A stretch of 64,000 bases of DNA from a bacterium (GCA_023269085.1 JAHFML010000001.1:11966-75965); one strand, 5' to 3'; shown: positions 11,725 through 32,150, numbered from the stretch's first letter. A program made the numbers and translations. Notes: generated by a model from the letters alone, not told the origin.

Positions 11725-11735
11725 AGTGCAGAATC

Positions 11736-11954
11736 TTAGTTGCTAACCCCTACCATTTTACCTCGAGAACGGTGTCCTGTCAGGATATGCACATCCTCAA
11801 CCCGTGCGCCGAATCGGAGCGCGACGAGCTCGCAGACCCGCCTATTCGCATGGTTCCCGCTCGCCGGCTCTCGCACGGCAATAAGGAGCGTGTCGCCCTT
11901 TTCTTCGACACTCTCCCGCCGCGCCCCCGGCGTCACGAATACTTTGAGGTACAT
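11736..11954 (-). CDS. YggU-like DUF167 protein
   Basis: 72 aa from M(YLKVFVTPGARRESV...GNHANRRVCELVA). The rest of the track ORF is Arg/Ser-rich and unlikely to be coding. Confidence 0.5.
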   Translation of the reverse strand: MYLKVFVTPGARRESVEEKGDTLLIAVREPASGNHANRRVCELVALRFGARVEDVHILTGHRSRGKMVGVSN

Positions 11955-12018
11955 AGGCGCATGATAGCAAACAACAACGCGCGCCGCAGAGCGGCGCGCG
12001 TTGTGCTTTTTGATCTCG

Positions 12019-12228
12019 TTAGATCTTGCTTGCGTTGAGAGCGTTCTTGCCCTTCGGGCTGTCACCGATCTCGAACGAAAGCCTGTCCCCTTCGCGAAGC
12101 TCGTCGAACGAAATGTTCTGGAGCTCGTTGGAGTGGAAGAAGAGGTCCTTGTCACCGGCGGCGGCACCATCAATCTTGATGAAGCCGAAGCCGTTGTCAT
12201 TCTTCTTGACGACTGTTCCTTGTGTCAT
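12019..12228 (-). CDS. Cold-shock protein (CspA family)
   Basis: 69 aa. GFGFI (RNP1-like) and DLFFHSNEL motifs. About 120-nt 5' leader. Confidence 0.85.
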   Translation of the reverse strand: MTQGTVVKKNDNGFGFIKIDGAAAGDKDLFFHSNELQNISFDELREGDRLSFEIGDSPKGKNALNASKI

Positions 12229-12349
12229 GCTGTGAAATGAAATATTCGACTAAAGTATCAATTCAGGCGCCGAAGATAGAAGCTCGATCCCACTTCTCTG
12301 GATCCAACTCTGGTTGATGTATTGAGCCTATCATGCCTCAATTATTTTG

Positions 12350-13342
12350 TCAAATCGCATTCAACGCGGTGCGGGTGCGCGGGCCGACCGAGCCGACCAC
12401 TTCGAGCCCGTGCGCTTTTTGAAAGTTCTTCACCGCGGCGGCCGTGAGCGTGCCATAGTAGCCGGTTATGGGGCCGGCGTAGACACCAAGCGTCGTGAGC
12501 TTGTTCTGGAGCGCCGTCACGGCCGCGCCGCGCGAGCCGAGAGCGAGATAGGTGGTGAAGCGGTAGGCGCTCGTGTTCGCGCTCGGAGTTGCCGGCGCCG
12601 TACTCGGCGCCGGAGTGGTTGGCGCGGGCGCTGTCGTTGCCACCGCGCTCGTGGTCGTCGCGACGTTTGGCGTCGTCGACGCGACAGGATTGATCACCGT
12701 CACCGGCACGATCGTCTGCGCGCTGTGCCCCTGAGAGTCCCACGCGCGCACCGTGAGCGCATGCGTCCCCAAGTCATCGGTGGTCGGCTTCCATGAAAAC
12801 GCACCGTTCGCATCGACATTGCTCTGTACGAGCGTCGTCATCGCCGTCGCATCATAGACGCCATAACTCGGCATGACGAAGCCGGGCGCCACAATACTGA
12901 AGGTGACAGGACTGCGCACCACGACCGTCCCGCTCGTTGGCAACAAATTAGACACGACAACGGTCTTACTCGTGACGATAATCGTCACGGTCGACGATGC
13001 GGCGTGCGTATAGGCATCGCTCACCGAGACCATAATAACGTGCCTCCCTGCGTCCCCCGACGCGGGCGTCCATGTGAAGAACCCGATGTTGTCGATATGC
13101 CCGCCCGGCCCAGCGGCTATCGCGGCAGTCGGCGCGAAGGCGTCGGCGATCTGGTAGACCGGATCGATGAACCCTGACGCGAGCGCTGAAAACGAGACTG
13201 GAGTCCCCGGATCAATCGCACCCATGGGCGACACCCCGGCGATATAGACTGATCCGCCCGCCGCGTGCGCTCGCGCAGTAACGCCGACACAAGAAATAAG
13301 TATACAGAGACTGAAAACAAGCCCGCATGATATATATTTCAT
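12350..13342 (-). CDS. Secreted repeat protein with a C-terminal peptidoglycan-binding (PG_binding_1-like) domain
   Basis: Signal peptide, Ig-like repeats, Thr/Pro/Ala linker, C-terminal YAGPITGYYG...NFQKAHGL. Confidence 0.55.
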   Translation of the reverse strand: MKYISCGLVFSLCILISCVGVTARAHAAGGSVYIAGVSPMGAIDPGTPVSFSALASGFIDPVYQIADAFAPTAAIAAGPGGHIDNIGFFTWTPASGDAGRHVIMVSVSDAYTHAASSTVTIIVTSKTVVVSNLLPTSGTVVVRSPVTFSIVAPGFVMPSYGVYDATAMTTLVQSNVDANGAFSWKPTTDDLGTHALTVRAWDSQGHSAQTIVPVTVINPVASTTPNVATTTSAVATTAPAPTTPAPSTAPATPSANTSAYRFTTYLALGSRGAAVTALQNKLTTLGVYAGPITGYYGTLTAAAVKNFQKAHGLEVVGSVGPRTRTALNAI

Positions 13343-13371
13343 GCTCCTATTCTACAACAAAGAATCCCTGA

Positions 13372-14364
13372 TTAGGACTTCAGCCCGTCAATAACTTCCA
13401 CACTTTCCTTCGCGTCGGTAAGGAACTTCTTAACAATCTCGAGATTCGCATTGTCCTCTTCACTCGGCGTCTCACCGCTCGCGAGCAGATGGCCCTCGTA
13501 TTCGGCGAGATCGTCCGTGAGCCAGAGGTACGCCGCGAATAGCAAGTCTTCGTTCTTCTTGGTCTCGTCGACGATAATCACCATCATCTCGGGCACGGTG
13601 AATGCTTTCTTATACGGTCGGTCGGCAGAAAGCAGAGCTTGTTCTATATCGGCGAGATGCAACATATCTTCAAGGACGCTGATATGAAGCGCGCCTATGG
13701 TCGCAGAATATTTCTCTAGTTTTTTATTGCCGTAATTGTGATGGTGTGCGGCGATATATGCCTCAACGAAAAGCCCCGCTTTCTCAAGAATTTCTCCTGA
13801 AAATCTCTCGTGTTCCTTCATAATTTCCATAAGAGTTTCGTCGCCGGTGAATCCGAGACCTTGCACTCTTGTGAGATCCTCGGGTGAGAGCACTTCACGT
13901 GCCGGGCTACGATACTTTTTGCGATCGGTCTCATGGAGAATCGAAAGCGGCAGCAAGATCTTGCCGAAGTCATGACCAATACATCCATTCTCGAATTCGT
14001 CTTCGGACACTCCCTCATTTTTCGAAAGGCGCCTGAAAGAGGTTCCCGCGATAATCTTATCCATCTTCATCTGTGCGATTCGGTAGGTCTCGCGACTATG
14101 CCGTGCGGTACCGGGATCGTACAGATCCTCAAGCGTGAATATCGCGCGCACCGTCTCATTCTTAAGATTGATCCCGTCGAGATCATACTCTTTGCTCACG
14201 CGCTTTTCTTCTTCTTCGAGCAATCCCTCCTGCTGGAGCATCTCGAGAGCTTTCCCCGGGTAGATTCCCATTCGTGCAATCGCTTCGGCGCGCAGATGAT
14301 GAGCGTTTTCGAGCGACTCCCTTCCCGCAGGGTGCGGCTTCTCGGCGGTCTCTGGGCGGTGCAT
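13372..14364 (-). CDS. HD-domain phosphohydrolase family protein
   Basis: H...HD...H...D pattern (GHDFGK, HETD). 330 aa. Confidence 0.5.
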   Translation of the reverse strand: MHRPETAEKPHPAGRESLENAHHLRAEAIARMGIYPGKALEMLQQEGLLEEEEKRVSKEYDLDGINLKNETVRAIFTLEDLYDPGTARHSRETYRIAQMKMDKIIAGTSFRRLSKNEGVSEDEFENGCIGHDFGKILLPLSILHETDRKKYRSPAREVLSPEDLTRVQGLGFTGDETLMEIMKEHERFSGEILEKAGLFVEAYIAAHHHNYGNKKLEKYSATIGALHISVLEDMLHLADIEQALLSADRPYKKAFTVPEMMVIIVDETKKNEDLLFAAYLWLTDDLAEYEGHLLASGETPSEEDNANLEIVKKFLTDAKESVEVIDGLKS

Positions 14365-14437
14365 AGATCTTTTACGTGTCCTTTAGATTATACATCGGGA
14401 AATGATGTATGGGAAGTTATGCACTCTGTGCTCGAGA

Positions 14438-14908
14438 TTAGTTCCCCGAGAGTTCAGGGACCGAGGTGGCGCTGTCGCCGGTACCGGCGGGTGCCTTACA
14501 GGCGACCGCAGATGTCCGATACTGGTTCCATGCGGCGACCTGTGCGGTCTGCCACGACTTCTTCGCTATCTTCATCGACGCGGTGAAGGTCGACCATGCG
14601 GTCTTGACTGACGACTTCATTGCGGCGAGCGTCGTCTGCGTGTACGCCTGTTTGAGCGCCGCGGCACGAGCGCTATGCGCCGTATTCACTGACTGCGTAT
14701 ACGCCATCATGGCCACCCCGATCGCCGCCTCGCGCGCGTTCACTGCCGCACCGACACATACAATCTTGGCAGCTGCCGATGCTGTCGTCGTTGCTGTCGC
14801 GTTAGCTGTTGCCGAGACTGTCCCAGGTGTCACCATCGCAAAAGCAGGGAGAGCTGCGGCCAATAAGCTGATTGCTACTGTCGCACCCATAAGTATCTTG
14901 CGTGTCAT
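14438..14908 (-). CDS. Hypothetical secreted protein (signal peptide MTRKILMGATVAISLLAAALPAFA)
   Basis: ORF with a clear signal peptide and an Ala/Thr-rich body. An overlapping plus-strand ORF was rejected. Confidence 0.35.
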   Translation of the reverse strand: MTRKILMGATVAISLLAAALPAFAMVTPGTVSATANATATTTASAAAKIVCVGAAVNAREAAIGVAMMAYTQSVNTAHSARAAALKQAYTQTTLAAMKSSVKTAWSTFTASMKIAKKSWQTAQVAAWNQYRTSAVACKAPAGTGDSATSVPELSGN

Positions 14909-15049
14909 AGATTCTTAAATTATTTTGCTACTAAAAAATTGATCCCTACCTTACTAGTGTACCATGACACACTCACTGTCAGTGACTTCCCCGTCACGAG
15001 TAATGAAAGCCCCGCGGAGCGCATGGCTTCCACGGGGTTATAGACTTCT

Positions 15050-15346
15050 TTAATATTTGCTTTCCTGCAGTTTTTTTTCTAGCTGTCTTTTCCGAGACAG
15101 CGCCTCTTTGTTATCGGGATCCAGCGACAGCGCAATCCGATACGCCTCGAGCGCGTCCTCGGGTTTGAGACGAAACTCATCAAGAAGTCCGTTCAGGACA
15201 TACATGTGAGCACGGAACTGCGCTTCCTGTTCGCCGCATTGAATTCGTGCATCGACGTCAACATCAGACCATCGTGACAAATCTTGCGCTACCGTCAACA
15301 ACGAAAACAGACTCAAAAGAACTGCAACGAACGACTTTTTCATCAC
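15050..15346 (-). CDS. Small secreted TPR-like protein
   Basis: Signal peptide plus a helical repeat (AYRIALSLDPDNKEA). 98 aa. Confidence 0.4.
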   Translation of the reverse strand: MMKKSFVAVLLSLFSLLTVAQDLSRWSDVDVDARIQCGEQEAQFRAHMYVLNGLLDEFRLKPEDALEAYRIALSLDPDNKEALSRKRQLEKKLQESKY

Positions 15347-15428
15347 GAATCTCCTTACAGAAGTGATGTATGTGGTTGGACTTCAATCTTTAATATATAA
15401 CTGTAGCTAAGCCGTGTCAACACACTCT

Positions 15429-16421
15429 TTATTTCCCTCGACCGAAATACTTTTTCAAGAGCGCGACATGCTGTCCGTAGGTGTCCGAGCAGTGGAGCGT
15501 CTTCGCGTTATCGTGAAAGTAGAAGAGGCAGGTCGTCTGCTTCGGGTTGAGCGCCGCGAGCACCGCCGCAATACTCGGGCTCGCTATAGGGCCGGGCGGC
15601 AGCCCTTCGTTCACATAGGTATTGTAGGGCGACTTGAGCGACAGATCTCGCGGGCGCACGGAAGGCCACCACCCCGTCTTCCCTTCTCTCGCATCAGCCT
15701 TCGCATACTGAACCGTCGCGTCGAGCTGCAGTCGCATATTGGTAAAGAGCCGGTTCCATATGATCCCCGATACAATCCTCATATCATTTTTGTCGCTCGT
15801 CTCTCGCTCGATCATCGACGCGATGGTGAGTGCGTCGTCGAGCGGGACGACTGCCGCGACCGAGGCGGGATAGTGCGCGATGATGTCATCGTCAAATCGC
15901 TGTCGCAACAGTATCCGCACCTGTGCCGGCGTCGTGCGCGGCGCGACGACATATGCCCCCGGGAGGAATTCACCTTCGGCGAGGGTGGTGCTCTCCGTCG
16001 AAGCGAGGAATGTCTGCTGATCCTCTTTACTCCAGCCAAGCGTGGTGCCGAAGGCAGCGGCTGCCTGCTCTCGGCGATATCCGGGATCAATCACGACAAC
16101 GCGCGAGCTCCCTATCGGTATCGCCGCGGCGAGCGACTCGTACCACGGCGTCTCCATGAGAGCGGCGGCGATGCTCGCGAAGAGATCCCCCGCCCCGCCG
16201 ACTGCCGCCATGAGGAATGGTTTGGCACTCGTCAGCTGTTCATTCACAACAGAACTTTCGGTAATAGTCTTGTCCTTCGGGTGCACCGTGACGGGGAATG
16301 GCTGGATCGTCGTCAGAGCGGGCGGCGCAGGCTGCTCCCACGATACAACGCTCGGCAGGGAGAAGAAAATCGCCGCGGCGCCGATGAGCCCGACACCGAG
16401 ATATGAGAGAACGCGTTGCAT
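15429..16421 (-). CDS. mltG: Endolytic murein transglycosylase MltG (YceG family)
   Basis: N-terminal TM segment, then SMIERET...IWNRL...MRLQLDATVQY, the YceG signature. Start taken at MQRVLSYLG. Confidence 0.75.
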   Translation of the reverse strand: MQRVLSYLGVGLIGAAAIFFSLPSVVSWEQPAPPALTTIQPFPVTVHPKDKTITESSVVNEQLTSAKPFLMAAVGGAGDLFASIAAALMETPWYESLAAAIPIGSSRVVVIDPGYRREQAAAAFGTTLGWSKEDQQTFLASTESTTLAEGEFLPGAYVVAPRTTPAQVRILLRQRFDDDIIAHYPASVAAVVPLDDALTIASMIERETSDKNDMRIVSGIIWNRLFTNMRLQLDATVQYAKADAREGKTGWWPSVRPRDLSLKSPYNTYVNEGLPPGPIASPSIAAVLAALNPKQTTCLFYFHDNAKTLHCSDTYGQHVALLKKYFGRGK

Positions 16422-20159: not shown

Positions 20160-20222
20160 GTTGCGACTATTCTATATCAAAACCTGATCCCCGCCTCACC
20201 AACATAGTGGACGGGGACAAGA

Positions 20223-20789
20223 TTAAATATTCATACTTTGGTTGCGGAGATTCGTTTTAACTTCCTTATAGTTAGGAAGCATCTTGCCAACAAGACTCCA
20301 AAACTTCTTTGAATGATTGAATTCGCGCAGATGGCATAACTCATGGACGATCACATAGTCACGAGCGTCCATGGGCAGAAAGAGTATCTTGTAATTGAAA
20401 TTAAGATTCCCTCTCTTTGAGCAACTTCCCCACCGAGTCTTCTGATTTTTAATGTTGATCTGACTGAAGCTGAACTGGTAGATAGTATTAAAGTAATTTA
20501 CTCGTTCTACTGCGAGCGCATATGCTTCGTCCTTATATTTCAAGTAATCAGCCTTGCTATGACGAGCGACCGCCTTCCCGCTGAACTGTTTGAAGAACGC
20601 AATCTTTTTGAAAAGCCAGTCTGTCTTCTCTCGAATAAACTTTTCGACAACCGTCTCCTTGAGATCAAAGGGCGACGTGACCACAATCGTACCGTCACAA
20701 TATACTGCGAGACGCATCCTGCGAGCGCGATGACTTTTCCGAAGTGTATAGGTGATCTTTTTATCCTGAAGAGCTATTTGTTTCTCCAT
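20223..20789 (-). CDS. DUF45/YgjP-like zinc metallopeptidase (M48-like), the kind often linked to type I R-M loci
   Basis: WGSCS...YVIVHELCHLREFNHSKKFW signature. Lies immediately downstream of hsdR. Confidence 0.75.
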   Translation of the reverse strand: MEKQIALQDKKITYTLRKSHRARRMRLAVYCDGTIVVTSPFDLKETVVEKFIREKTDWLFKKIAFFKQFSGKAVARHSKADYLKYKDEAYALAVERVNYFNTIYQFSFSQINIKNQKTRWGSCSKRGNLNFNYKILFLPMDARDYVIVHELCHLREFNHSKKFWSLVGKMLPNYKEVKTNLRNQSMNI

Positions 20790-20791
20790 GA

Positions 20792-23698
20792 TTAGAATTT
20801 CTTCATTACAATATCGACCAAACGATTGAGATATTTGTGGAAGTCACTGACCTGAATACGATCCCGATACTCCTTAAGAACCAGCTCCTGCACGATGCGC
20901 TTCACCTCTTTCAAGAATTCATCGCGCTTGGATGACTCCTGCCATCCCTCGTCGAGAATATTTTCGAGACGATTGGTCATGTCCTTGATGAATTCACGAA
21001 CAATATCTTTATCTCCCCCAACGAACTCCGTCGAAACGACATAGAGACCGTACTCCTTGAGTGAATACCCGAGCTCTTTAGCTTCATCGCCTTTCTTCTT
21101 TATGTCGGCAAGGAGCTCCTGATACCGCTTGATGCGTTCCGAGAGATCAATCTGGTGCTGCTCGAATTCTTTGCGGATTAATCCCAGACGCTCACTGAAC
21201 TTTTTATACGCCGGATTCGTGTCTATGTTGATTGAGATCTCTTGTTTGAGCATCTTCTCGAGATTGAGTGCTTTCTCTTCGTCATCCATCTTGTTGAGCC
21301 GCTCCATGACATAGAGATCATTCACATTGAGCTCGCGGAAGTTCTTGGTGATACCTTCGTAATCAACGCGTTGCTGTATGAGTAGCTTCACCTTCTCCCC
21401 ATACTCCGCGAGAAGTTCAGCATCTGACATCTTCTCGCTGTACTCCTTTTCGAAGGCGAGATAAACGCTCGTAAGCCACTCGAATGTTCGCACAGACTCT
21501 TTCAAGAAAGGATCCGGCGAAAGAATCTCAAACAGAAGTTTGAGCCGTGCATATTTGCCCCGGAAGAACTTCTGCTTGTCGAGATTCTCTGCAAAGATCT
21601 TGAGACATCGACGCAAGTTATCAATAGACGGATCTTCGATATTAATGCCCGTAAAGATATCCATGGTCTCTCTAAGCACCTCGATAAATTCTTCTTTGAG
21701 TTTATCGATATTGAGCATCGCCGAATCAACGATACTCTCGTCAAAATTGAGTGCTTGATAGAGACTCTTGGTAATGCCGTAATAGTCGATGACCTTCCCT
21801 GCCCCCTTGTTTGGATAGACCCGATTGGTGCGCGCAATCGCTTGGAGCAGATTGTGATCCCAAAGCGGCTTGTCGAGATACATCACTTGTTCAACTGGCG
21901 CGTCAAAACCAGTCAGAAGCATGTCGCAGACGAGCAAGAATTTGAGTGAGCTGGTTGGGTTCTTGAATTCGTTGATTATCTTCTCACGCTTCGCCTTTGT
22001 CGTATTGTACTTACGCAAGTCCTCTGAATCCGTATTCGGGTCACCCGGCGAATAAACCACTTCTGACCATTCCTTCGGTACCAGTTGGTCGAATAACTTT
22101 TTATACTTTGCGACTGCCTCGCGGTCATAACAAACAACCTGCGCTTTGAATCCAGACGGCTCTACATACAGACGGTAATGCTCGACAATGTCCCGAGCCA
22201 CCGCCTCCATACGTCGGTCGAGCTTCACGATTGCTTCTTTCTTTCCATACTTCTTTGCCACCACATCACGCTCCTTATCTGAAAGGTCGGTCGTTAGCTC
22301 TTCGAACTGCTTATCGAGCTTCTCGTCATCAATAAAGAATTTAGAAAGCCGCGCTTCGTAGGTCACAGGGAGCGTTGCGCCATCATCGATAGCTTGTTGG
22401 ATGGAATAGTAATCCAAGTATCGCTCTCCTTCTTCTCCGAAGTTGCGGTGCGTATTGAGAGTAACTCGATCGATCGGAGTACCAGTGAAGCCAAAGAAGA
22501 ACGCATTCTTCATCGCGCTTCGCAGATTGATAGCCGACACGCCCTCGTTGTCGCGATGCGCTTCATCCGAGAGCACGATGACATTCTCATCGAGATTCTC
22601 GATATCCTTACCAAGTTCCGAGAACTTCTGGATAGTCGTGATGAAAACTCCACGCTCCGGTGACTGTATTTTCTTCTCCAAATCAGCTCGCGACTCCACC
22701 CGAACCACATTTTTACCGCCGCAATTGACGAAGGTCTCATATATCTGGTCATCAAGATCAATGCGGTCGACGAGAATGAATACCTTCGGATTCTTGAGCT
22801 CTTTGTTGTAGCGGAGCTTCCATGCGGTGAAGAACATGGTGAGCGACTTCCCCGAGCCTTGGGTATGCCAGATGAGCCCGCGCTTTTTATCTCCTTCAAG
22901 CACCCGCTCGACAATCTTGTTGGTAGCCCGCAATTGCTGATATCGCGCGATCTTCTTGATCGTCTGTTCCTTCTCCTTCTCGAAGAGAATAAAGTTCTGA
23001 ATGATATCCAGAAGTCGCTCCTTCTCAAGAAGCGAGACGAGTGTCGCCTCAAGATTCCCTTCTTCAGATTTCTCAAGTTCATCATCTTTCCATTCCAAGA
23101 AGTACTGCACTGGCGCATAAGTTGCTCCATACACTGTCTTCAATCCGTCAGTCGCTACATTGAAACAGTTTGGCCAAAAGAGTTTAAACGCGTTCCGCTC
23201 GTAACGCTTGATCTGTCCGACTGCGTTTGCATAATCCACATTAGTTGCAGCTGTAGGGCTCTTGGCCTCTATATCGACTACTGGCAAGCCGTTCAGAAAT
23301 ATCATTATGTCCGGGCGGATGTTTTCGGAATTACCCTCAAAATAGAACTGATTAGTGACGACGAAGTGATTATTGGCAGGAGTAGTAAAATCTACGATGA
23401 AGTAGTCGCGCATTTTGCCCGTCTGCGGATCCTTGAGATTTACCCCATTGCGCATGACATTCAAGAACGCCTCATTGTTATCGACCTTCTTCACCTCGCG
23501 CACTACCGAAAGTGCCTCGTCATCTTCAATTCCGTTTATCTTCTTCACCGCTTCGAGCAAAAGCGATGTAATGATGTATTCATTCTCAAACTCGCGCAAT
23601 TTCGCAAATTCCGTAGGCACAACATATTCGTATCCCAAACGCTCCCGAAGAAACTTCAGGATATGATTCTCGACCGTGTATTGTTCGTTGAATTTCAT
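20792..23698 (-). CDS. hsdR: Type I restriction enzyme R subunit (HsdR)
   Basis: 968 aa. Walker A HTQGSGKSLTM and DEAH box (LSDEAHR). N-terminal nuclease region. Helicase motifs. Confidence 0.9.
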   Translation of the reverse strand: MKFNEQYTVENHILKFLRERLGYEYVVPTEFAKLREFENEYIITSLLLEAVKKINGIEDDEALSVVREVKKVDNNEAFLNVMRNGVNLKDPQTGKMRDYFIVDFTTPANNHFVVTNQFYFEGNSENIRPDIMIFLNGLPVVDIEAKSPTAATNVDYANAVGQIKRYERNAFKLFWPNCFNVATDGLKTVYGATYAPVQYFLEWKDDELEKSEEGNLEATLVSLLEKERLLDIIQNFILFEKEKEQTIKKIARYQQLRATNKIVERVLEGDKKRGLIWHTQGSGKSLTMFFTAWKLRYNKELKNPKVFILVDRIDLDDQIYETFVNCGGKNVVRVESRADLEKKIQSPERGVFITTIQKFSELGKDIENLDENVIVLSDEAHRDNEGVSAINLRSAMKNAFFFGFTGTPIDRVTLNTHRNFGEEGERYLDYYSIQQAIDDGATLPVTYEARLSKFFIDDEKLDKQFEELTTDLSDKERDVVAKKYGKKEAIVKLDRRMEAVARDIVEHYRLYVEPSGFKAQVVCYDREAVAKYKKLFDQLVPKEWSEVVYSPGDPNTDSEDLRKYNTTKAKREKIINEFKNPTSSLKFLLVCDMLLTGFDAPVEQVMYLDKPLWDHNLLQAIARTNRVYPNKGAGKVIDYYGITKSLYQALNFDESIVDSAMLNIDKLKEEFIEVLRETMDIFTGINIEDPSIDNLRRCLKIFAENLDKQKFFRGKYARLKLLFEILSPDPFLKESVRTFEWLTSVYLAFEKEYSEKMSDAELLAEYGEKVKLLIQQRVDYEGITKNFRELNVNDLYVMERLNKMDDEEKALNLEKMLKQEISINIDTNPAYKKFSERLGLIRKEFEQHQIDLSERIKRYQELLADIKKKGDEAKELGYSLKEYGLYVVSTEFVGGDKDIVREFIKDMTNRLENILDEGWQESSKRDEFLKEVKRIVQELVLKEYRDRIQVSDFHKYLNRLVDIVMKKF

Positions 23699-23704
23699 AT
23701 TCGT

Positions 23705-24595
23705 TTATTTCTTCTGTCCATTTCTTAAGATGACAAAACGTATTAGCGAGCCGGTCATGCTAACTACCATCTCCGAATCGTCTCTGTTAAATTCTTTGCA
23801 TGTACCGTGCTTTATTTCATCCATCCAGTTGCGTAAGTTTTTGAAAAGTTCTTTTTGATGACCATTCAATCCTAGAGCTTTTGAGTCGGTCTTGTCTGAT
23901 ATATGCTTAAAACCTTTTTCTCTTTTGCCAGATACTGATTTTACCAACTCATCGCAAGCCGTGTACATGTCCTCAATAACATCTTTGTAGTGCGCTTGTG
24001 TCTTCGCTGTCAAAAATTCCTTTAGCCCATTTTCAAAATGAGAAAGAACGTGTTCAAATCTTTCGTCCGTCTCTAGTAATCCAAGGGTATTTTTAATATC
24101 CGTCTCAAATTTCTTTGAAGTAGTTGGCAAGATCTGTGGCGCTTTTCGTTTATAGATCTTTATGGTCACCCCTAGCATAGGAAAATCATTGAGATATTTT
24201 TCTATACGTTTCGCAAGTTGATCTAATTCAGCTCGCACAAAATCATGTTCTGCTACAACATTCAGCAATACTTGTAATCGCAACAAATATTCTTCGAAAG
24301 ATCCTGAGAAACGGTCTGATATCTCACCGTCAATCATTCGCTTCAATCCAGATGAATAATCTGTGCCATACCAATCGTCGATATCAAAAAATAACTGGCG
24401 ACACACTTCATCTAATATAGCCGACTGAAGTTCCCAGAGTTTTGTACTGTCTTGATACACACTAGGAGAGATGATCGGCCCCAATGCATCGATGATTTCA
24501 CCCTTTAAATATTTCTTGCACCCGACTCGAACACTCTCAATATTGAGTTTGAGTCCAAAGCGGGAATATAAATCTTGATTTGTATTATTGTTCAT
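23705..24595 (-). CDS. Hypothetical 296-aa protein embedded between hsdS and hsdR
   Basis: Translationally coupled with hsdS (ATGA overlap). Lys/Glu-rich and helical. No motif recognised by eye. Its position suggests a defence or abortive-infection passenger. Confidence 0.5.
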   Translation of the reverse strand: MNNNTNQDLYSRFGLKLNIESVRVGCKKYLKGEIIDALGPIISPSVYQDSTKLWELQSAILDEVCRQLFFDIDDWYGTDYSSGLKRMIDGEISDRFSGSFEEYLLRLQVLLNVVAEHDFVRAELDQLAKRIEKYLNDFPMLGVTIKIYKRKAPQILPTTSKKFETDIKNTLGLLETDERFEHVLSHFENGLKEFLTAKTQAHYKDVIEDMYTACDELVKSVSGKREKGFKHISDKTDSKALGLNGHQKELFKNLRNWMDEIKHGTCKEFNRDDSEMVVSMTGSLIRFVILRNGQKK

Positions 24596-25809
24596 ACTTT
24601 TACTCTTTGCTTTCCACTCAACAAATCCTGCATCAGACCTTTTTTCAGTCCTGTGAGTTTTTCCTTCAACTCCTGATTGATCGTCATTTTATCGTCAACC
24701 GATGAAAGCACTTCGGAGATTTTCTTAATCTCATCAATGTTTGATGGCTTCGGAATTGGAATGGAGAACAGCCTATCCTTGTTGAGTTTTGGTTGAGCCA
24801 TGCCAGTTAGAAAAGGCTCGAGATTGATCATATTCAGATAGTCTTGTATATACTTCTGAAGAAATCGATCTTCAAACCTTTGAAGGTGTGCATGATTATT
24901 TACCCAATATTTTCCAATAGCAGTAAAAGCAATCGGGTAATTCCTATCTTTTAGATTCGCGCCATCTTCTGAAATCAAGAGCAACTCTTCATCAAATATA
25001 TAGTCGCCAACATAATCCACAATTCCTGTTGCCCCATAATAAGGATAAGATCCTGATTCACGCTTTGATTTGGTAATAGGAATTCGCTTGTTATCTAGAT
25101 TAGATGAAATATCATTTAGGTTCACAATTTCCCAATCTCTTGGAATCTCACCGATCTCAGTTTTCTTATATTTTGTATGGCCAATGCCTTTGGTAAAAAG
25201 TTGCTGTGTCAGTCCGTGCTTGAGCTTTTTGGTCATAGCAATAATCTCGTCAGTTTTCTGAATTTCTTCATCGACAGAGGTGAGAATCTCAGCAATCTTC
25301 TTTTGTTCCTGCTTGGACTCTGGGAAGAGTATGCTTACTCCCAGAAAATCGTGCTTGGATAGATTAAAACGTGTACTACCTTTTGCATGCGCAGCAATTT
25401 CTTTCCTGAAGACAGACCCTCTGAAAAGGTAGCCTCCGAAAGTTGGATCGAGCAGGTCCTTCTCGGGACGGAATATGAAACAGAAACTGTTCAAATACAA
25501 TTCCACTGGGTCCGAGACCACAGCGGAAGACATTCCGACCTCCTCCGGAGTTTCAGAGCTGGTCGTAAAAATATAGTCCCCATACCGTATCTGATTTTGT
25601 CTCTCTCCATCTTTTATCTCCACGAGGTTAGTAAAATCTTTGTCAAGATGAGGATTACGAAAGACATTCATGTATGGAATGAATGGTCTTCCACTACCAA
25701 AATCTTTCTTAGATTTCCCAGTAAGACCTCCTAAGGTATTACCTAGATCCTCAAGCTTTACTCGTTTCCACTGTGGAGGAACGTTGCGTTGTGAAAGTTT
25801 ACTACTCAT
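24592..25809 (-). CDS. hsdS: Type I R-M specificity subunit (HsdS)
   Basis: Two target-recognition domains separated by conserved helical spacers. Start taken at MSSKLSQRN. Confidence 0.8.
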   Translation of the reverse strand: MSSKLSQRNVPPQWKRVKLEDLGNTLGGLTGKSKKDFGSGRPFIPYMNVFRNPHLDKDFTNLVEIKDGERQNQIRYGDYIFTTSSETPEEVGMSSAVVSDPVELYLNSFCFIFRPEKDLLDPTFGGYLFRGSVFRKEIAAHAKGSTRFNLSKHDFLGVSILFPESKQEQKKIAEILTSVDEEIQKTDEIIAMTKKLKHGLTQQLFTKGIGHTKYKKTEIGEIPRDWEIVNLNDISSNLDNKRIPITKSKRESGSYPYYGATGIVDYVGDYIFDEELLLISEDGANLKDRNYPIAFTAIGKYWVNNHAHLQRFEDRFLQKYIQDYLNMINLEPFLTGMAQPKLNKDRLFSIPIPKPSNIDEIKKISEVLSSVDDKMTINQELKEKLTGLKKGLMQDLLSGKQRVKV

Positions 25810-27616
25810 CTTTAAATTCAATCTCGGTGAAGAGCGCCTTGATGTTCGCTTTTGTGCCATCACTCAACGTAACTTCCCCGGCCCTTGCCTTCTGAAGAAA
25901 CTTGCGTGCAAGCAAAACCTTATCGGGCTTCGGGTTCAGATTCTTGATGTATTCAGAATTTGCGGAAGTATAGACCAGAGACTCGTCTTCCATAACATAA
26001 TTCTTAAAATCCTCTGGGCTGAATATGTCCGCAATGGTTGATCCGTCTTTTTTGAGAACCGTCTTGATGGCATCAGGCAGAACTTTCCATGCCTTCAAGT
26101 TTTTGACCCCATCTTTCTTCCCTTGATCATTATCAAAAAGATAATGTACATCTGCGCCCCACCCCTCCAATATTGTTCCCACGATGCCCATGTTTGGAGC
26201 ACCACCACCATTTATAAAGTTGGTTTTAAGATCTTTCTTTTCAAGCTCCTTGAAAGCACGAAGAAAGAATACATCCTCTGGACCTTCTACGACCACGTTG
26301 TCCTTCTGATCGAGATTGGTGATCGAGTCATTAATGCCGAGGCCGATTGCAGTAAGGATAGGAGTGAGTGTTTCCTTATCAGCAGTCGGGTGTGCATGTA
26401 TCTTCCCCAAGATCTTAGTGCCCGTCCCATCTGAAGGCTTCTCGACGAGCCTGATGTTCTCGAGGTTGTCTTCGGTAATAAGGTAAGGGGAATGTGTGGA
26501 GAAGACGACTGGATTTTCATTCGTGTGTGCCAACAAAACCTGAAGAAGGTCTTTCTGTGCTTTTGCATGCAGGTAAAGTCCCGGTTCATCAATTAGTATG
26601 ACGTTGGGTTTATCTTCCTGAAGCCTTGCAACAATCTTCACGTAAAATGACAAGTACCACTGCTGACCCTTACTTCGTTGTGACGGATAGTAAAGTTTGT
26701 TATTTTCAACGATCCAGAAGTTTATGTCGGTGCCGTCTTTCTTCACCTGTAACTTTATCTTGTCTTGAGTCCAATATTTATCGAACTTCTCCGAGAAGTC
26801 GACGTTTACGGAAGTCTCGTGATTTACTTGCTCTTGTTGATTGGTCGAGGCCATCTTTGCGGTCGAGAAATTACTGACATGCTCAAGATCTTGAGCCCAT
26901 TCATTCGATGTAAGTGAGGCGATTGGGATTGATTTCGGGAACTCATCATCAAAAGATGAGAAGAGAACAAAATATGGCAACTGTGATTTTACAAACTCTG
27001 CAACAAAATCTGTCACGAGCTTCTCCTGAGCGTAGTAATCGTCAGACATTTTTTCTATCATGATCACTTCGGCGACTACATCTGTAAGGCCCGCATTCTG
27101 GGACTTAAAAGTTACAACTTCTGTCTTAAAATCACTAAGTTTCTTTTTTTCGAGGTTTGGAAACTTAACACCGGCTCCTGAGGATTTGATCAGAGCATCT
27201 ATCTTCTTGATAGACTCTTGGATCTGTTTCTTGGAGATTTCATAAATATTTGGGAGATTAATTTGCTTACGTGACTCTGGATCAACGATATACGTCGTGA
27301 CTCCGAATTTCTTGGTTAATGTAATTACTGCATCCTTTGTAACGGTTTTATCAGTACCGATAGCCTTAAGAATTTCATTCGTCTCAGAGTCCGGAAGAAC
27401 AAAAGTGATGGATATCTCTGGAACACCTTCGCCATCTATTGGTTTGGCTTCCTGTCTGATAGTTTTATCTTGATGGAAATCCTCCAATGCTTCCAAAACA
27501 GATGTCTTTCCGGATTCATTCTTACCGGCAAGAATGGTCAGTTTCTCGCTGAAATAACAGTCGCCTGAATCAACAATAGACTTATAGTGCTTGATTCTAA
27601 ATTTGGTGAGTTTCAT
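25802..27616 (-). CDS. OLD-family ATP-dependent endonuclease-like protein (N-terminal ABC-type ATPase, C-terminal TOPRIM)
   Basis: Walker A LAGKNESGKTSVLEAL. Walker B/D-loop ILIDEPGLYLH. TOPRIM-like VVVEGPEDVFFL...LFDNDQG. 604 aa, located between hsdM and hsdS. Confidence 0.65.
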   Translation of the reverse strand: MKLTKFRIKHYKSIVDSGDCYFSEKLTILAGKNESGKTSVLEALEDFHQDKTIRQEAKPIDGEGVPEISITFVLPDSETNEILKAIGTDKTVTKDAVITLTKKFGVTTYIVDPESRKQINLPNIYEISKKQIQESIKKIDALIKSSGAGVKFPNLEKKKLSDFKTEVVTFKSQNAGLTDVVAEVIMIEKMSDDYYAQEKLVTDFVAEFVKSQLPYFVLFSSFDDEFPKSIPIASLTSNEWAQDLEHVSNFSTAKMASTNQQEQVNHETSVNVDFSEKFDKYWTQDKIKLQVKKDGTDINFWIVENNKLYYPSQRSKGQQWYLSFYVKIVARLQEDKPNVILIDEPGLYLHAKAQKDLLQVLLAHTNENPVVFSTHSPYLITEDNLENIRLVEKPSDGTGTKILGKIHAHPTADKETLTPILTAIGLGINDSITNLDQKDNVVVEGPEDVFFLRAFKELEKKDLKTNFINGGGAPNMGIVGTILEGWGADVHYLFDNDQGKKDGVKNLKAWKVLPDAIKTVLKKDGSTIADIFSPEDFKNYVMEDESLVYTSANSEYIKNLNPKPDKVLLARKFLQKARAGEVTLSDGTKANIKALFTEIEFKDE

Positions 27617-27623
27617 AGACGCA

Positions 27624-29447
27624 TCAATAATTCAATTCGTTAAGAAAGCCCTCGACCTTTTTATCTATTTCCGCTCGTTCTTTCTCCAGCGCCACGAGCT
27701 CCTTACGCACCGCAGACACATCGATCTCTTCCTCCTTGTCGCCATTCTCGATATAGCGACGAACATTGAGATTGAATTCGTTCTCTTCGATTTCTTTGAG
27801 ATCTATTACGCGAGCATAGTTCTCGACATCAGCGTAGTTGTCGTAGGCGCGGATAATCTTCTGAATGTCTTGCACGCGAAGCGAGTTCTGATTCTTCCCT
27901 TCGGAGAAGTCCTTTTCGGCATCAATGACAAGCACCTTGTCCTTGCGATTCTCTGGTTTGTTCTTGTTGAAAATGAGAATGGCCGCTGGGATGCTGGTGC
28001 CGTAGAAGAGTTTGGACGGGAGTGCGATTACCGCTTCAAGAAGGTCGTTCTTGAGCAGTTGCTCGCGGATACGCCCCTCTGCGCCACCACGGAAGAGGAC
28101 ACCATGCGGGAGCACAATGCCCGCGCGACCATTTGAATTCATCGACTTGATGATGTGGAGGACAAAAGCATAGTCGGCGTTCTTGTCCGGTGGCATATCA
28201 TAGCCATCGACGCGACCGTATTTGTCGAATTTGAAGAGTTCGTATTCCCAATCCTTGATTGAGTAGGGTGGGTTCGCAACCACAATATCAAAAGTCTTGA
28301 GCGAACCGTTTGGATTGAGGAATTGCGGATTCACGAGTGTATCGCCGCGCTGTATGTCAGCACTGTCGAGTCCGTGCAGGAACATGTTGATCTTGGCAAT
28401 GGCGTAGGTCCCGATGTTGAGCTCCTGACCATAGAGATAAAGAGTGCGGGCAACTGACTCACCCTCTTTCTCTTTCAAGTGATGAAAGGCCTCGAGAAGG
28501 AAACCGCCCGATCCGACCGTCGGGTCATAGATATGGTCCTTCTTGTGCGGTTTAAGAATCTGAATGATCACACCTTCTACTTCGCGTGGGGTATAAAATT
28601 CTCCGCCTTTCTTGCCTGCGTCAGCCGCGAATTGCTTAATGAGATATTCATAGGCATCGCCGAGCAGATCGGAATTGATATAGGTATCACCGAAGTTGTA
28701 CTGCGAGAAATGATTGAGAAGACGCTGAAGCGTCTCATTCGGGAAGCGATCCTTATTAGCAAAATCGAGATCGTCAAAAATCTTATCAAGCTTCGGGCTA
28801 TTGGCATTCGCAAGCTTCTCGAAGACCTCGTTGAGCTTCACGCCGATGTTTTCTGCGCGTTCCTCGATAACTGACCAACGACACTCCTTGGGGACCTGGA
28901 AGCGATGATTATAATCGGCGCGGGCGATCGTTTCATCCTTGAATTCATCCATTACCCGCGCGTACTCCTCGTCCCACACGTCGCTGATGCGCTTATAGAA
29001 AAGAAGTCCGAAGATGTATTTCTTGTAATCCGAGCTGTCGATCTTACCACGAAGGATGTCGGCGCTCTTCCAGAGAAATTGTTCGAGCTGTGGCAGAGTA
29101 AGTTTGCTCCCCATCTTGTCGACGATCGTCTGAATGTCCTGTGGGCGATACTTACGATCGCCGCGCTTACCAGCACGAAGAGGCACCAAGATCCCATCTT
29201 TCTCCCAATTGCGAAGAGTATCGGGGTGGATATTAAAAATTTCGGCTACCTGGCCGATAGAGAGCAAATCTGGCATGTCTTTAAGCTTTGCTTGAATATC
29301 TTTTCGCATATCTATACGCCTCATCCTATCGCCGCACAAATATAATGTCAAGCGTTCATAGGTCTTCATAGGTCTGCATCCTAACTTACGGCTTAAAATA
29401 AGGATAATCTGGTTACCAACAGCTCGGATTTGTGCTCTGGACTTCAA
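27624..29447 (-). CDS. hsdM: Type I R-M DNA methyltransferase subunit (HsdM) with an in-frame N-terminal MerR/excisionase-like HTH extension
   Basis: N6-adenine MTase motifs (NPPY, FYTP) and an HsdM N-terminal domain (LEQFLWKSADILRG). Upstream of it, in the same frame, about 70 aa with LSIGQVAEIFNIHPDTLRNWEKDGIL. Candidate starts are 29447, 29324 and 29309. Confidence 0.85.
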   Translation of the reverse strand: MKSRAQIRAVGNQIILILSRKLGCRPMKTYERLTLYLCGDRMRRIDMRKDIQAKLKDMPDLLSIGQVAEIFNIHPDTLRNWEKDGILVPLRAGKRGDRKYRPQDIQTIVDKMGSKLTLPQLEQFLWKSADILRGKIDSSDYKKYIFGLLFYKRISDVWDEEYARVMDEFKDETIARADYNHRFQVPKECRWSVIEERAENIGVKLNEVFEKLANANSPKLDKIFDDLDFANKDRFPNETLQRLLNHFSQYNFGDTYINSDLLGDAYEYLIKQFAADAGKKGGEFYTPREVEGVIIQILKPHKKDHIYDPTVGSGGFLLEAFHHLKEKEGESVARTLYLYGQELNIGTYAIAKINMFLHGLDSADIQRGDTLVNPQFLNPNGSLKTFDIVVANPPYSIKDWEYELFKFDKYGRVDGYDMPPDKNADYAFVLHIIKSMNSNGRAGIVLPHGVLFRGGAEGRIREQLLKNDLLEAVIALPSKLFYGTSIPAAILIFNKNKPENRKDKVLVIDAEKDFSEGKNQNSLRVQDIQKIIRAYDNYADVENYARVIDLKEIEENEFNLNVRRYIENGDKEEEIDVSAVRKELVALEKERAEIDKKVEGFLNELNY

Positions 29448-29502
29448 AGACGGTCTGCGTCATTCATTGGGTTATATGGAAACAGCCGCAATTCGCACCC
29501 CA

Positions 29503-30804
29503 ATGACATTCGAGCAAGCCGTTACAAGCCCCGTTCGATACTGCCTCTATGCCCGCAAGAGCACCGAACAGGACGAGCTTCAAGCCGACTCGCAGATCAA
29601 GGAGATGAGCGAGGCGGCCATCAGAGACGGATTGGAGATAGCTGAAGTCAGAAAAGAATCGCACTCGGCCAAGGAGTCTGGCCAGCGACCGGTCTTCAAG
29701 AAGATGCTCGAAGATATACGCAGAGGTATGTTCAACGGCATCATCGCGTGGGATCCATCCCGTATAAGCCGCAACGCTGGAGACCTCGGATCAGTCGTCG
29801 ATCTAATGGACCAGAAGCTTATCGTCGATATCCGAACGCATGGGCAACGATTTACCAACTCGCCGAATGAGAAATTCCTCTTGATGATTCTCTGTAGCCA
29901 GGCGAAGCTCGAGAATGATCATAAGGGAGAGAACGTGAAGCGCGGTCTCCGAGCGAAGTGCGACATGGGATATCGACCCGGCGTCTCGCCGATCGGTTAC
30001 ATCCATGACAAATATGCTGACAAAGGACAAAAGCGCGTTCTCGTCGATCCTAAGCGTGCGCCGATTGTCAAGCAGATGTTCGAGAAGGTCGCGTACGAAG
30101 ATTGGAGCGGTCGCGACTTGCATGAATGGTTTGTGCAAACCGGCTTCATGACCCGATCTGGCAAACGTGTGGCGCTCTCGGGCATCTACAGGATGCTCAA
30201 GGATACTTTCTATTACGGGGAGTTCGAATATCCTGAAGGGAGCGGAAAAATCTACCGAAGTGCCGTCGAGTCAATTATAACGAAGGAGCTATTCCTCAAG
30301 GCCCAAGCAAATCTGCAGGCTCCCCCACGCAGACATCCCGGCACCAACGAGTTCGGATTCACCCGCCTCTTCATCTGTGGCGCGTGCGGCTCCGGTATCA
30401 CTGCCGAAGAAAAGTTCAAGAACCTCAAGAATGGTGCTCGCAATCGGTATGTTTATTATCACTGCACTCGGTATAACGATAAACGCTGTAAAGAGAAACC
30501 GATTCGTGAAGAAAACCTTGTTGAGCAATTGCTGCGGATTATCGACAAGGTCGATAACAATGAGATTGGTGCCCGTGCGCAGATCGGTAAAGAGGTCGCG
30601 CGATATCGTCAGATTGCTTATGGCGTCCTCGGTTACGAACCAGAGCTTGTTCGAGTACCGCCTGAAGCCGATGTGAGACAGTACACGAAGCACGTACTCA
30701 AGTACGGCACCAAGGAAGAGCGGCGGGAGATAATTGGGTGTCTCGATGGAAGAATTGAACTCAAGAGCAAGAATCTTGGTATACGAATCTTTGCAGAATG
30801 CTAA
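29503..30804 (+). CDS. Large serine recombinase (resolvase/invertase catalytic domain, recombinase domain and zinc ribbon)
   Basis: YARKSTEQDE catalytic Ser region. A C-x2-C...C-x-C zinc ribbon (CGACGSG...YYHCTRYNDKRC). Divergent from hsdM. The longest ORF starts at 29467. Confidence 0.8.
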   Translation: MTFEQAVTSPVRYCLYARKSTEQDELQADSQIKEMSEAAIRDGLEIAEVRKESHSAKESGQRPVFKKMLEDIRRGMFNGIIAWDPSRISRNAGDLGSVVDLMDQKLIVDIRTHGQRFTNSPNEKFLLMILCSQAKLENDHKGENVKRGLRAKCDMGYRPGVSPIGYIHDKYADKGQKRVLVDPKRAPIVKQMFEKVAYEDWSGRDLHEWFVQTGFMTRSGKRVALSGIYRMLKDTFYYGEFEYPEGSGKIYRSAVESIITKELFLKAQANLQAPPRRHPGTNEFGFTRLFICGACGSGITAEEKFKNLKNGARNRYVYYHCTRYNDKRCKEKPIREENLVEQLLRIIDKVDNNEIGARAQIGKEVARYRQIAYGVLGYEPELVRVPPEADVRQYTKHVLKYGTKEERREIIGCLDGRIELKSKNLGIRIFAEC

Positions 30805-30813
30805 GATTCGGTA

Positions 30814-31347
30814 ATGACATACGCTCAAGCCGAAGCTTCATTTGGACGCTTCAAAGAGAGATTGCGCGAGCGTCTTGGTCTTAAAAAAGTCAAGAAACAA
30901 GTGCACGATCAGCGAACCAAAGATACTTTCGCAAAATCAGATCCTGACACCAAGATGAAAGTAATTGGGCCGCAGTTGGAATTCTTCACATCCTCCGTGT
31001 CGCGGAAGTCTGATCTACTCCCGACAATAGCAACACTTGTAGCTACTTTGATAGTTGTTGCTACTTTGAATCATGATTTGGTACCTCTACAGCCAAAAGA
31101 GACGAAAACGATTTTGACTCTATTCCTCATACTTATTCCAAGCACTCTGCATTACTACATAAAGCTTATGGAACGTACTGCCAGACAAGCTGTCGATGTA
31201 ATCGATTCATATCAAGGATTTAACGCCTTTGATAAACTTGGGCCGATTTCTTTCTTGCAATACCTAAGTTCCGATATTCCGATAATTATTGTCTATATTC
31301 TCTATGGGGTCGTCGGGCTTATAATCTTTAGAGTTTGGTTCGGATAG
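30814..31347 (+). CDS. Hypothetical membrane protein
   Basis: ORF with C-terminal TM helices. AT-rich. Confidence 0.35.
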   Translation: MTYAQAEASFGRFKERLRERLGLKKVKKQVHDQRTKDTFAKSDPDTKMKVIGPQLEFFTSSVSRKSDLLPTIATLVATLIVVATLNHDLVPLQPKETKTILTLFLILIPSTLHYYIKLMERTARQAVDVIDSYQGFNAFDKLGPISFLQYLSSDIPIIIVYILYGVVGLIIFRVWFG

Positions 31348-31359
31348 GTGCTTCCATAA

Positions 31360-31395
31360 CGACCCATCCCCGGCCTTTCGGACGGGGATGGGTCG
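31360..31395. terminator. Stable 12-bp hairpin cgacccatcccc...ggggatgggtcg with a weak U-tract on either strand, between the island and the tRNA 3' end
   Basis: Seen directly. Possibly a bidirectional terminator or processing signal. Confidence 0.35.
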
Positions 31396-31452
31396 GTTGC
31401 ACAGGATTCATCTGCTCCGCGGGTAGGATTCGAACCTACGACCAACTCGTTA

Positions 31453-32032
31453 CACGTTGCCTCTTGTTACCAAGAGAGTGGACTATATCATCACCCGTAT
31501 CTGTTCTCACAGATCGAGGGTGCGAGGCGCTTCGTCCTTCGATTATTCTCAGGACTACTCCCTTGCGGGATAGTCTCTACACCTTCCTCTCGACATGCGC
31601 CGAGAGACTTGGCTCGGGATTGCCCACAGCATTTCCTCTGTTAGGGGTTCCCCGAATTCACCTCGTGTTCGACCTGAATCTCTTCAGGAAGCTGCGTAAT
31701 GCCTGCGTGCACTTCACGGTGACAATTCGCACAAACAAGAGCGCATTTATCGATTTCTTCTTTGATTTTTTCCCATGATCTCGTGAGCCCTTTTGTCGAG
31801 AGACCGAAGTCTTTCTTCGTAGGATCTTTATGGTGAAAATCAAGCGCTCCTGAATAACGATCGTAACCGCAAATAATGCACTTCCCGCCTTTGTACTCAC
31901 GCGCCATTTCTCGAAGTTTTTTACGACGTTCAGTAACAGCTTTGCGCAAATACTCTGCACGGTCGGCATAAGTCCTTTTTTCTTTTGGCATACTCAGATA
32001 AGTATACCATTGGGTTTCGGACTTGAACCACA
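31453..32032 (-). other. Intervening sequence inside the tRNA anticodon loop, a candidate ORF-containing group I intron (boundaries +/-2 nt)
   Basis: The 5' exon ends in U and the insert ends in G. The insert contains two GNRA-tetraloop hairpins (cucuug-GUAA-caagag at 31461-31476 and uccc-GCAA-ggga at 31561-31572, both read on the minus strand). The same-strand HNH ORF lies within it. Classic P1/P7 elements were not confidently identified by eye. Confidence 0.45.
31641..31991 (-). CDS. Small HNH endonuclease (116 aa) encoded within the tRNA intervening sequence
   Basis: CIICG...LDFHHKDP...CANCH: a HNH/His-Me finger with two CxxC pairs. Same orientation as the tRNA. Confidence 0.7.
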   Translation of the reverse strand: MPKEKRTYADRAEYLRKAVTERRKKLREMAREYKGGKCIICGYDRYSGALDFHHKDPTKKDFGLSTKGLTRSWEKIKEEIDKCALVCANCHREVHAGITQLPEEIQVEHEVNSGNP

Positions 32033-32150
32033 GCGAGCCGCTCTACCACTGAGCTACCGCGGAATATTTTTAGCACCAGAACACTCACCCACCTCGCTAT
32101 GAGGCGGTGTTCATAGTCTACCTGAAAAATCGCGAGCCGCAACAGCGACA

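Follow-up and report, generated by a model that had tools for sequence, protein, structure and literature searches.

The 64,000-nucleotide stretch of DNA analysed here (the window) contains a type I restriction-modification (R-M) operon of six tightly packed genes, all on the minus strand: hsdM, a gene for an OLD-like ATPase, hsdS, the target gene, hsdR and a gene for a YgjP-like peptidase. The target gene is thus the fourth of the operon. The open reading frame call, on the minus strand and with an ATG start, returned for it the same boundaries and length of 296 aa as the initial annotation. The genes of the operon were assigned as follows.

27624..29447, minus strand: hsdM, with an N-terminal MerR-type HTH (Pfam N6_Mtase, 3e-109; HsdM_N; MerR_1)
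25802..27616, minus strand: OLD-family ABC-type ATPase, the second embedded gene (Pfam AAA_15, 2e-20; AAA_21)
24592..25809, minus strand: hsdS, specificity subunit (Pfam Methylase_S, 7.4e-34, two stretches)
23705..24595, minus strand: target gene, 296 aa, ATG start (open reading frame call; stop codon at 23705-23707)
20792..23698, minus strand: hsdR, restriction subunit (Pfam HSDR_N, SWI2_SNF2, ResIII, T1R_D3-like and T1RH-like_C)
20223..20789, minus strand: YgjP-like (DUF45) metallopeptidase, last gene of the operon (Pfam YgjP-like, 1.8e-44)

The ATPase gene begins 7 nt past hsdM, the ATG of hsdS overlaps the stop of the ATPase gene (overlap of 8 nt), and the YgjP-like gene begins 2 nt past the hsdR stop. 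At the junction of hsdS and the target gene, which reads ...GTAAAAGTATGAAC..., the ATG of the target and the TGA of hsdS share 4 nt (ATGA). The junction of the target gene and hsdR reads ...AAATAAACGAATATGAAA..., where the target TAA is followed by the 6-nt spacer ACGAAT and the hsdR ATG. The protein had initially been described as translationally coupled between hsdS and hsdR. The overlap with hsdS is evident from the sequence, whereas coupling to hsdR across the spacer is only plausible. Gene calls in an identical contig (L001) give 405 aa for HsdS and 581 aa for HsdM, and the true start of hsdM is probably at 29369, which yields the 581-aa protein. The OLD-like ATPase matched AriA (7.6e-25), Old (7.9e-22) and GajA in PADLOC, and its Pfam match to OLD-like_TOPRIM was weak. 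The R-M island has a GC content of 0.38-0.49 compared with 0.549 for the window, is located directly 3' of a tRNA-Thr gene and adjoins a serine recombinase.

No Pfam family matched the target protein at E<=1, and nothing meaningful was retrieved from NCBIfam, PHROG or the sequences of the PDB (phmmer, and hmmsearch against the PDB), in agreement with its initial description as uncharacterised. Sequence searches detected no P-loop or ABC-type NTPase domain in it. Annotation offered one lead, in that PADLOC HMMs for PDC-S32 matched weakly (E 2.9e-5, 22 bits, and E 8.6e-5). The protein has a pI of 6.4, and the Lys/Glu-richness noted earlier is mild (K 9.8%, E 7.8%, D 7.8%). Its homologues form 55 clusters with 42-100% identity, all of them unnamed or "hypothetical" in their source records. 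Since these clusters share 14 invariant residues, the target is a real, selected gene.

Predicted HEPN domain and its conserved residues

The structure of the target was predicted by AlphaFold2 from an alignment of 33 sequences, hereafter the close subfamily, and the resulting model has a mean pLDDT of 90.8 and a pTM of 0.74. The model is nearly all-helical with one beta-hairpin, and the initial expectation of a helical protein is thereby supported at the level of prediction. The domains and motifs are located as follows.

24176..24595, minus strand: N-terminal helical domain, aa 1-140, the AbiJ-NTD4 equivalent, death-fold-like in predicted structure
24116..24175, minus strand: conserved linker and beta-hairpin, aa 141-160, LG..K.YK.K.PQILP..SK (two models)
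23708..24115, minus strand: C-terminal HEPN domain, aa 161-296
23939..23953, minus strand: D215-E-L-V-K219, [DE]x3[KR] motif in HEPN helix 2
23807..23833, minus strand: RNWMDEIKH, aa 255-263, at the end of HEPN helix 3, with the predicted catalytic H263 following K262

In the model, the four helices of the C-terminal domain form an up-and-down bundle in which an insert separates helix 2 from helix 3, the arrangement by which HEPN domains are recognized. Structural matches of the model include the HEPN toxins 7ae2 and 5yep as well as LsoA, RnlA, Csm6 and Csx1, each aligned over about 110 residues within target residues ~160-296. A Foldseek search against the PDB produced mostly spurious alignments to GPCRs and helical repeats (E>0.5), and 2hsb alone was matched with meaningful probability. 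Structure prediction with Foldseek had been proposed earlier as a check; the model displays a HEPN fold, while Foldseek was uninformative save for 2hsb. The beta-hairpin between the two domains (residues 141-160) is basic and conserved, and its strands (143-146 and 154-157) are present in both models. L141 is invariant in the close subfamily, where conservation reaches 90% or more at G142, Y148, K149, K151, P153, Q154, P157 and S160.

Metal-independent endoRNase activity is among the criteria for the HEPN superfamily. [quoted passage not shown] 2013, PMC3710099). We counted residues in a 63-sequence alignment of the wider family, whose members share 16-61% identity with the target. H263, found in 63/63 sequences, is the sole invariant column. 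Position 262 is basic in every sequence (R in 38, K in 25), position 215 is acidic in every sequence (E in 44, D in 19), and position 219 is basic in 58/63 (K in 48, R in 10). E275, R286 and R12 are shared by 61, 59 and 58 of the 63 sequences, respectively. In the AlphaFold model, K262-H263 lies at the end of helix 245-262 and D215x3K219 within helix 200-222; the latter motif supplies the acidic residue in helix 2, typically within Ex3[KR], that is expected of a HEPN domain.

The nearest arginine upstream of H263 occupies position -8 (R-N-x6-H) and does not conform to the canonical Rx4-6H spacing. The conserved basic residue of the target clade instead directly precedes the histidine (-1). The close subfamily has an extra R/K-N at -8/-7, with position 255 basic in 31/33 sequences, whereas the wider family has no R at that position and Ile in 30/63. 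A canonical Rx4-6H motif formed through R255 was rejected, because R255 is not conserved outside the close subfamily. Judged from the alignment and the model, the helix-3 and helix-2 motif positions of HEPN domains are both matched in the target, and the motif itself is non-canonical. An invariant His with a basic -1 neighbour and an always-acidic position 215 has the conservation pattern of an active site rather than of a scaffold. The initial statement that the protein has no recognisable catalytic motif was too pessimistic in view of the invariant [RK]-H dyad and the [DE]x3[KR] motif (Anantharaman et al. 2013). The RNWMDEIKH stretch, which had been called at best HEPN-like, lies at the end of the predicted HEPN helix 3 and contains the invariant H263, but its R is conserved in the close subfamily alone.

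Remote homologues and their genomic context

Searching 1.84 billion representative proteins with a profile identified only 169 relatives at E<=1e-3, mostly of 260-290 aa. At E<=0.01, 0/63 wider-family sequences matched AbiJ_NTD4 (PF18863) or Abi_C (PF14355), and other Pfam matches in the wider family were few, isolated and weak. A bridge from the target to a named family was provided by the locus L008. A second gene of the type I operon at this locus, located between hsdM and hsdS, matches the C-terminal profile of the target (E 2.5e-11) and also Pfam AbiJ_NTD4 at 69 bits, against a gathering score of 34. The family of this second gene comprises at least 1,323 clusters of about 270 aa with PF18863, many of which have PF14355 Abi_C too. 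In a sample of 35 members (the AbiJ_NTD4/Abi_C sample), PF18863 was found in all and PF14355 also in 14.

Comparison by hhalign of the wider family with the AbiJ_NTD4/Abi_C sample gave a probability of 98.7% (E 3.1e-16) over 254 columns spanning both domains, and 97.3% (E 2.7e-11) with one AbiJ_NTD4 protein. The close subfamily aligned with the same sample at 96.8% (E 2.1e-10) over the C-terminal 146 columns, which correspond to the hairpin and the HEPN domain. In these alignments K262-H263 is matched to the invariant R238-H239 ("GGIRHG") of the AbiJ_NTD4/Abi_C family, and D215 to its invariant E193. All 35 sampled AbiJ_NTD4 proteins match PDC-S32, with E values down to 6e-92. In the wider family, 22/63 sequences match PDC-S32 HMMs (best 7e-40), and in the close subfamily 10/33 match any PDC-S32 HMM at E<=1e-3 (7 and 3). 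PDC-S32 is listed by PADLOC as a "guilt-by-embedding" candidate for phage defence, and a literature search found no publication naming it.

The target is, on profile comparison, a very divergent relative of the AbiJ_NTD4 and Abi_C family, which equals the PADLOC candidate PDC-S32. This membership rests on profile-profile comparison and predicted structure because the Pfam models Abi_C and AbiJ_NTD4 miss the target. As the target fails these Pfam models and its subfamily mostly fails the PADLOC HMMs, it is best seen as forming a divergent new branch within a known kind of protein. Both groups of proteins are of similar size (~270-296 aa), have a ~160-aa alpha+beta N-domain followed by a HEPN domain and are embedded in type I R-M operons; L008 has both, in different slots. 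They differ in that sequence identity between them is only about 15% and in that the target subfamily has the extra conserved basic residue at -8 (RN-x6-H).

Close homologues found in a GTDB scan were all from Patescibacteria MAGs, and so far Patescibacteria genomes and unassigned metagenomic contigs have been the only sources of the divergent branch. The fetched loci amount to about 19 that are both distinct and informative; these are not fully independent because they are metagenome-derived and some may share descent. Of these, 16/19 are within or beside type I, type III or ISP-like R-M systems; a look for homologues in other R-M or defence islands had been proposed earlier as a check. The positions of the gene are as follows.

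10 loci: between hsdS and hsdR, always directly 5' of hsdR
1 locus: just upstream of a type I operon
3 loci (L011, L027 and L015): between type III mod and res
1 locus (L026): after a type III-like set of mod, res-helicase and endonuclease
1 locus (L033): near a type ISP-like enzyme and a HEPN_Cthe2314 gene
1 locus (L020): beside an Abi_alpha-like gene
2 loci (L016 and L032): without a visible defence neighbour

At L015, GmrSD is next after the type III set. Distant members of the family are solo genes amid housekeeping genes. Across the 10 type I loci, pairwise identities of the target and of HsdR are uncorrelated (Spearman 0.16, p 0.30). For example, the window and L002 share 61% identity in the target and 34% in HsdR, and L007 and L041 share 51% and 83%, respectively. 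The lack of correlation indicates that the module is exchanged among different R-M systems and does not co-evolve with them in the manner of a subunit. No conserved antitoxin candidate (MNT or a small adjacent ORF) was found at the fetched loci.

Proposed function and alternative explanations

We consider it probable that the target is a stand-alone, single-polypeptide Abi-type effector of the AbiJ/Abi_C (PDC-S32) superfamily, acting as an AbiJ/SadR-like RNase. The abortive-infection function suggested in the initial annotation gains support from the remote homology to AbiJ_NTD4/Abi_C. The N-terminal helical domain of ~140 residues, together with the basic beta-hairpin, would likely serve as a regulatory or sensor-oligomerisation module. 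The C-terminal domain would be a HEPN endoRNase in which H263 acts with K262, D215 and K219, and R255/N256 may also contribute to the active site in the close subfamily. When a phage evades or inhibits restriction, the RNase would be unleashed and would cut cellular and/or phage RNA, so that infection stops and growth is paid as the cost. Being co-transcribed with a type I R-M system and linked to it in translation, the target probably constitutes a second defence layer.

Among proteins studied by experiment, the closest precedent is SadR of Staphylococcus aureus, a dimeric Abi_C protein of 266 aa that acts as a specific ssRNA RNase and, as a single gene, protects against phage and plasmids (PMC13590631). 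Its activity depends on R, N and H in RNEYGDAH (R-N-x5-H), and its gene lies downstream of rlmH or in SCCmec; like SadR, AbiJ acts as a single gene (PMC13590631). The target resembles SadR and lactococcal AbiJ as a putative single-gene HEPN-type effector. Its R-N-x6-H is at a place equivalent to the R-N-x5-H of SadR and falls at the upper end of the Abi_C spacer range (PMC13590631). The residue before the His is A in SadR, whereas it is K/R in the target, and the N-terminal domains of the two proteins differ. Unlike the target, SadR is not embedded in an R-M system, and unlike SadR the target has no direct sequence match to the Abi_C Pfam model. The single-gene defence by SadR and the occurrence of distant family members as solo genes favour an autonomous effector. 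Against an RNase effector, the canonical Rx4-6H spacing is absent and HEPN domains can be non-catalytic RNA binders such as MtlR. The strict slot directly 5' of hsdR, seen in 10/10 type I embeddings, might reflect a functional tie to HsdR instead of autonomy.

That strict placement led us to consider an obligate HsdR-associated subunit, which we down-weighted because the family also occurs in type III, ISP-like and solo contexts and its identities are uncorrelated with those of HsdR. A functional tie of another sort would be that of PrrC. Like the target, prrC is located between hsdS and hsdR, in the type Ic R-M system EcoprrI. PrrC is embedded in hsdMSR and masked by the R-M complex (PMC3710099). 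By analogy, the target could be a HEPN RNase held inactive by HsdM/S/R and freed when a phage anti-restriction protein disables the complex; the trigger would then be that the R-M system has lost its integrity, and not that a phage component is sensed directly. The shared slot, the overlap with hsdS, the position directly 5' of hsdR at all 10 embedded type I instances and the C-terminal HEPN domain, as in PrrC, speak for such a guard. PrrC has an N-terminal ABC-type NTPase, however, which is the regulatory module of PrrC and RloC, whereas the target has a helical bundle in its place and no sequence similarity to PrrC; as it lacks the ABC NTPase domain, the target is not a member of the PrrC family. 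The type III, ISP-like and solo occurrences, and those upstream of operons, make a specific interface with HsdR or HsdS unlikely as a general feature. The uncorrelated divergence of target and HsdR and the single-gene action of the related proteins SadR and AbiJ also count against a guard of this kind. We therefore regard a PrrC-like guard as unlikely, and PrrC instead supplies the concept for a second-line RNase that is coupled with restriction.

Some HEPN families are non-catalytic, namely the RNA binder MtlR and the NT-associated HEPN (PMC3710099), and the target might likewise bind RNA or protein and, without killing the cell, regulate or assist the R-M system, for example by controlling expression, alleviating restriction or helping subunits assemble. 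The lack of a canonical Rx4-6H conserved across the family and the tight translational coupling with hsdS and, plausibly, with hsdR would fit such a role. Nevertheless, the invariant His, the invariant basic residue and the always-acidic [DE]x3[KR] position resemble an active site, the target gene is dispensable for type I R-M generally, and the solo and type III contexts are at odds with a type I-specific accessory role, which leaves this explanation decidedly improbable. HEPN domains are also common among toxins (PMC3710099), and the low GC content of the island and its location 3' of tRNA-Thr beside the serine recombinase would suit an addiction toxin that stabilizes a mobile R-M island by post-segregational killing. 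Given that no conserved cognate antitoxin candidate lies beside the target, that its neighbours are R-M subunits of varied type and that its relatives belong to Abi-type single-gene systems, we think this very improbable. The anti-restriction countermeasure also raised in the initial annotation, in the form of a counter-defence protein of phage or mobile-element origin, has in its favour only the position in the R-M operon and the low GC content. Neither the 50,697 phage records nor the 72,556 plasmid records searched by tblastn contained a match and there was no significant PHROG match, while fold and homology point to HEPN Abi effectors and the target is conserved inside host R-M operons across many Patescibacteria. 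This suggestion thus found no support, and we give it hardly any credence.

Death-fold resemblance of the N-domain and implications

In the model, the N-domain is predicted to be a six-helix bundle of Greek-key topology, which is the defining arrangement of death folds. Its structural matches are caspase CARDs, the PYDs of MNDA, NLRP5 and NLRP6, the DEDs of vFLIP and caspase-8, the CARDs of MAVS and BCL10 and the DD of MyD88. The same PYD and CARD chains were already matched in the search with the full-length model. These matches raise the possibility that the AbiJ-NTD4-type N-domain, unclassified in 2013, is a genuine bacterial death-fold (PYD/CARD-like) domain that drives RNase assembly, an idea that we hold tentatively and consider doubtful. 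A phage cue would then induce homotypic polymerisation of the death-like domain and thereby bring the HEPN domains into active dimers or filaments, and the protein would resemble an inflammasome-style effector in miniature.

Bacterial Death-like (bDLD) and CARD-like domains are established precedents. PYD/CARD-like domains have already been reported in the restriction-linked CoCoNuT systems. The target is connected with death-fold domains only through the structural resemblance of a predicted model. Its N-domain precedes an effector domain, as the "EAD principle" expects. However, bDLD/EAD domains usually occur in matched pairs, whereas the N-domain HMMs find the target alone and no second copy within the 64-kb window. 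The host also departs from the precedents, being a reduced, unicellular Patescibacterium and not a multicellular bacterium. Death, CARD, PYD and DED gave no Pfam match in the target at E<=1, and a literature search found no publication linking AbiJ N-domains with Death-like domains.

The analysis provides a gene that is blank in standard resources with a name and with an active site that can be tested (H263, K262, D215, K219 and R255). It indicates that AbiJ/PDC-S32 HEPN effectors reach further than current HMMs detect, into Patescibacteria, and that PADLOC-type tools would miss most of the target clade. The locus adds one more case of layered defence, in which a small predicted RNase module recurs in the same type I slot and is also found in type III and ISP-like systems. 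The recurrence of the same module in these settings supports "guilt-by-embedding" as a discovery principle. If the death-fold resemblance is true, polymerisation-driven activation would offer a mechanistic handle on a large uncharacterised Abi family. It would also mean that a death-fold-driven RNase resides in the restriction operons of ultra-small unicellular Patescibacteria, and the death-fold/EAD principle would extend to the whole AbiJ-NTD4/PDC-S32 family.

Homologous genes nested in other restriction loci

[quoted passage not shown]

L008 (= L039), metagenomic type I operon: paralogue pair at 3459-4295 and 5457-6299
L002 (= L003, L004, L021): type I operon stretch at 5417-9892
L015 (= L040): type III R-M locus at 6993-16033

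L008 carries two distant paralogues of the superfamily in two different slots of one operon. The slot between hsdM and hsdS holds a bona fide AbiJ_NTD4 protein, and that between hsdS and hsdR a member of the subfamily of the 296-aa protein. In L002, 5 unannotated or DUF2321 genes (111, 252, 198, 400, and 144 aa) are nested between hsdM and hsdR besides the homologue, an "embedded" locus with unusual crowding. In the type III loci L015 (= L040), L011, and L027, the homologue is nested between mod and res and accompanied there by 2 or 3 other small unannotated genes. In L015, res is followed by a gene for a GmrSD-type type IV enzyme, and an AbiEii gene lies just upstream in L011 and L027.

The R-M/defence block and the adjacent tRNA-Thr gene

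The following features of the window lie in or beside the R-M/defence block (~20200-31400):

29467-30804, (+): large serine recombinase, in the block
31414-32063, (-): tRNA-Thr(UGU) with group I intron (ARAGORN, introns allowed)
31641-31991: HNH-type endonuclease ORF inside the intron (motif CANCHREVH)

Default ARAGORN returned zero tRNAs across the whole 64-kb window, and tRNA-Thr(UGU) was detected by this program only with introns permitted. Its anticodon loop is interrupted by a group I intron of 577 nt, which matches Rfam RF00028 at 31460-31749 (67.5 bits). The R-M/defence block lies directly 3' of this gene. Its GC is 0.38-0.49 versus 0.549 for the window, and the gene of the 296-aa protein has the lowest value (0.38). 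Because of the low GC, the serine recombinase, and the position 3' of tRNA-Thr, the block looks like an integrated island.

Other genes of the type I operon

Three further genes of the operon were annotated:

20223-20789, (-): YgjP-like (DUF45, HExxH) metallopeptidase (Pfam, 1.8e-44), 2 nt after hsdR
25802-27616, (-): OLD-family ABC-type ATPase, 604 aa, between hsdM and hsdS (Pfam and PADLOC)
27624-29447, (-): hsdM, with N-terminal MerR-type helix-turn-helix

YgjP-like metallopeptidases are frequent neighbours of type I R-M operons, with no known functional explanation. For hsdM, 29369 is the probable true start, and the protein would then have 581 aa. Residues 63-108 of HsdM match MerR_1 (Pfam, 3e-10), and this predicted helix-turn-helix suggests that HsdM itself includes a regulator of operon transcription. 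The OLD-family ATPase matches AAA_15 (2e-20) and, weakly, an OLD-like TOPRIM domain in Pfam, and AriA (7.6e-25), Old (7.9e-22), and also GajA in PADLOC. It is the second embedded defence-type gene of the operon, beside that of the 296-aa protein, and the type I operon therefore contains two different nested candidate systems.
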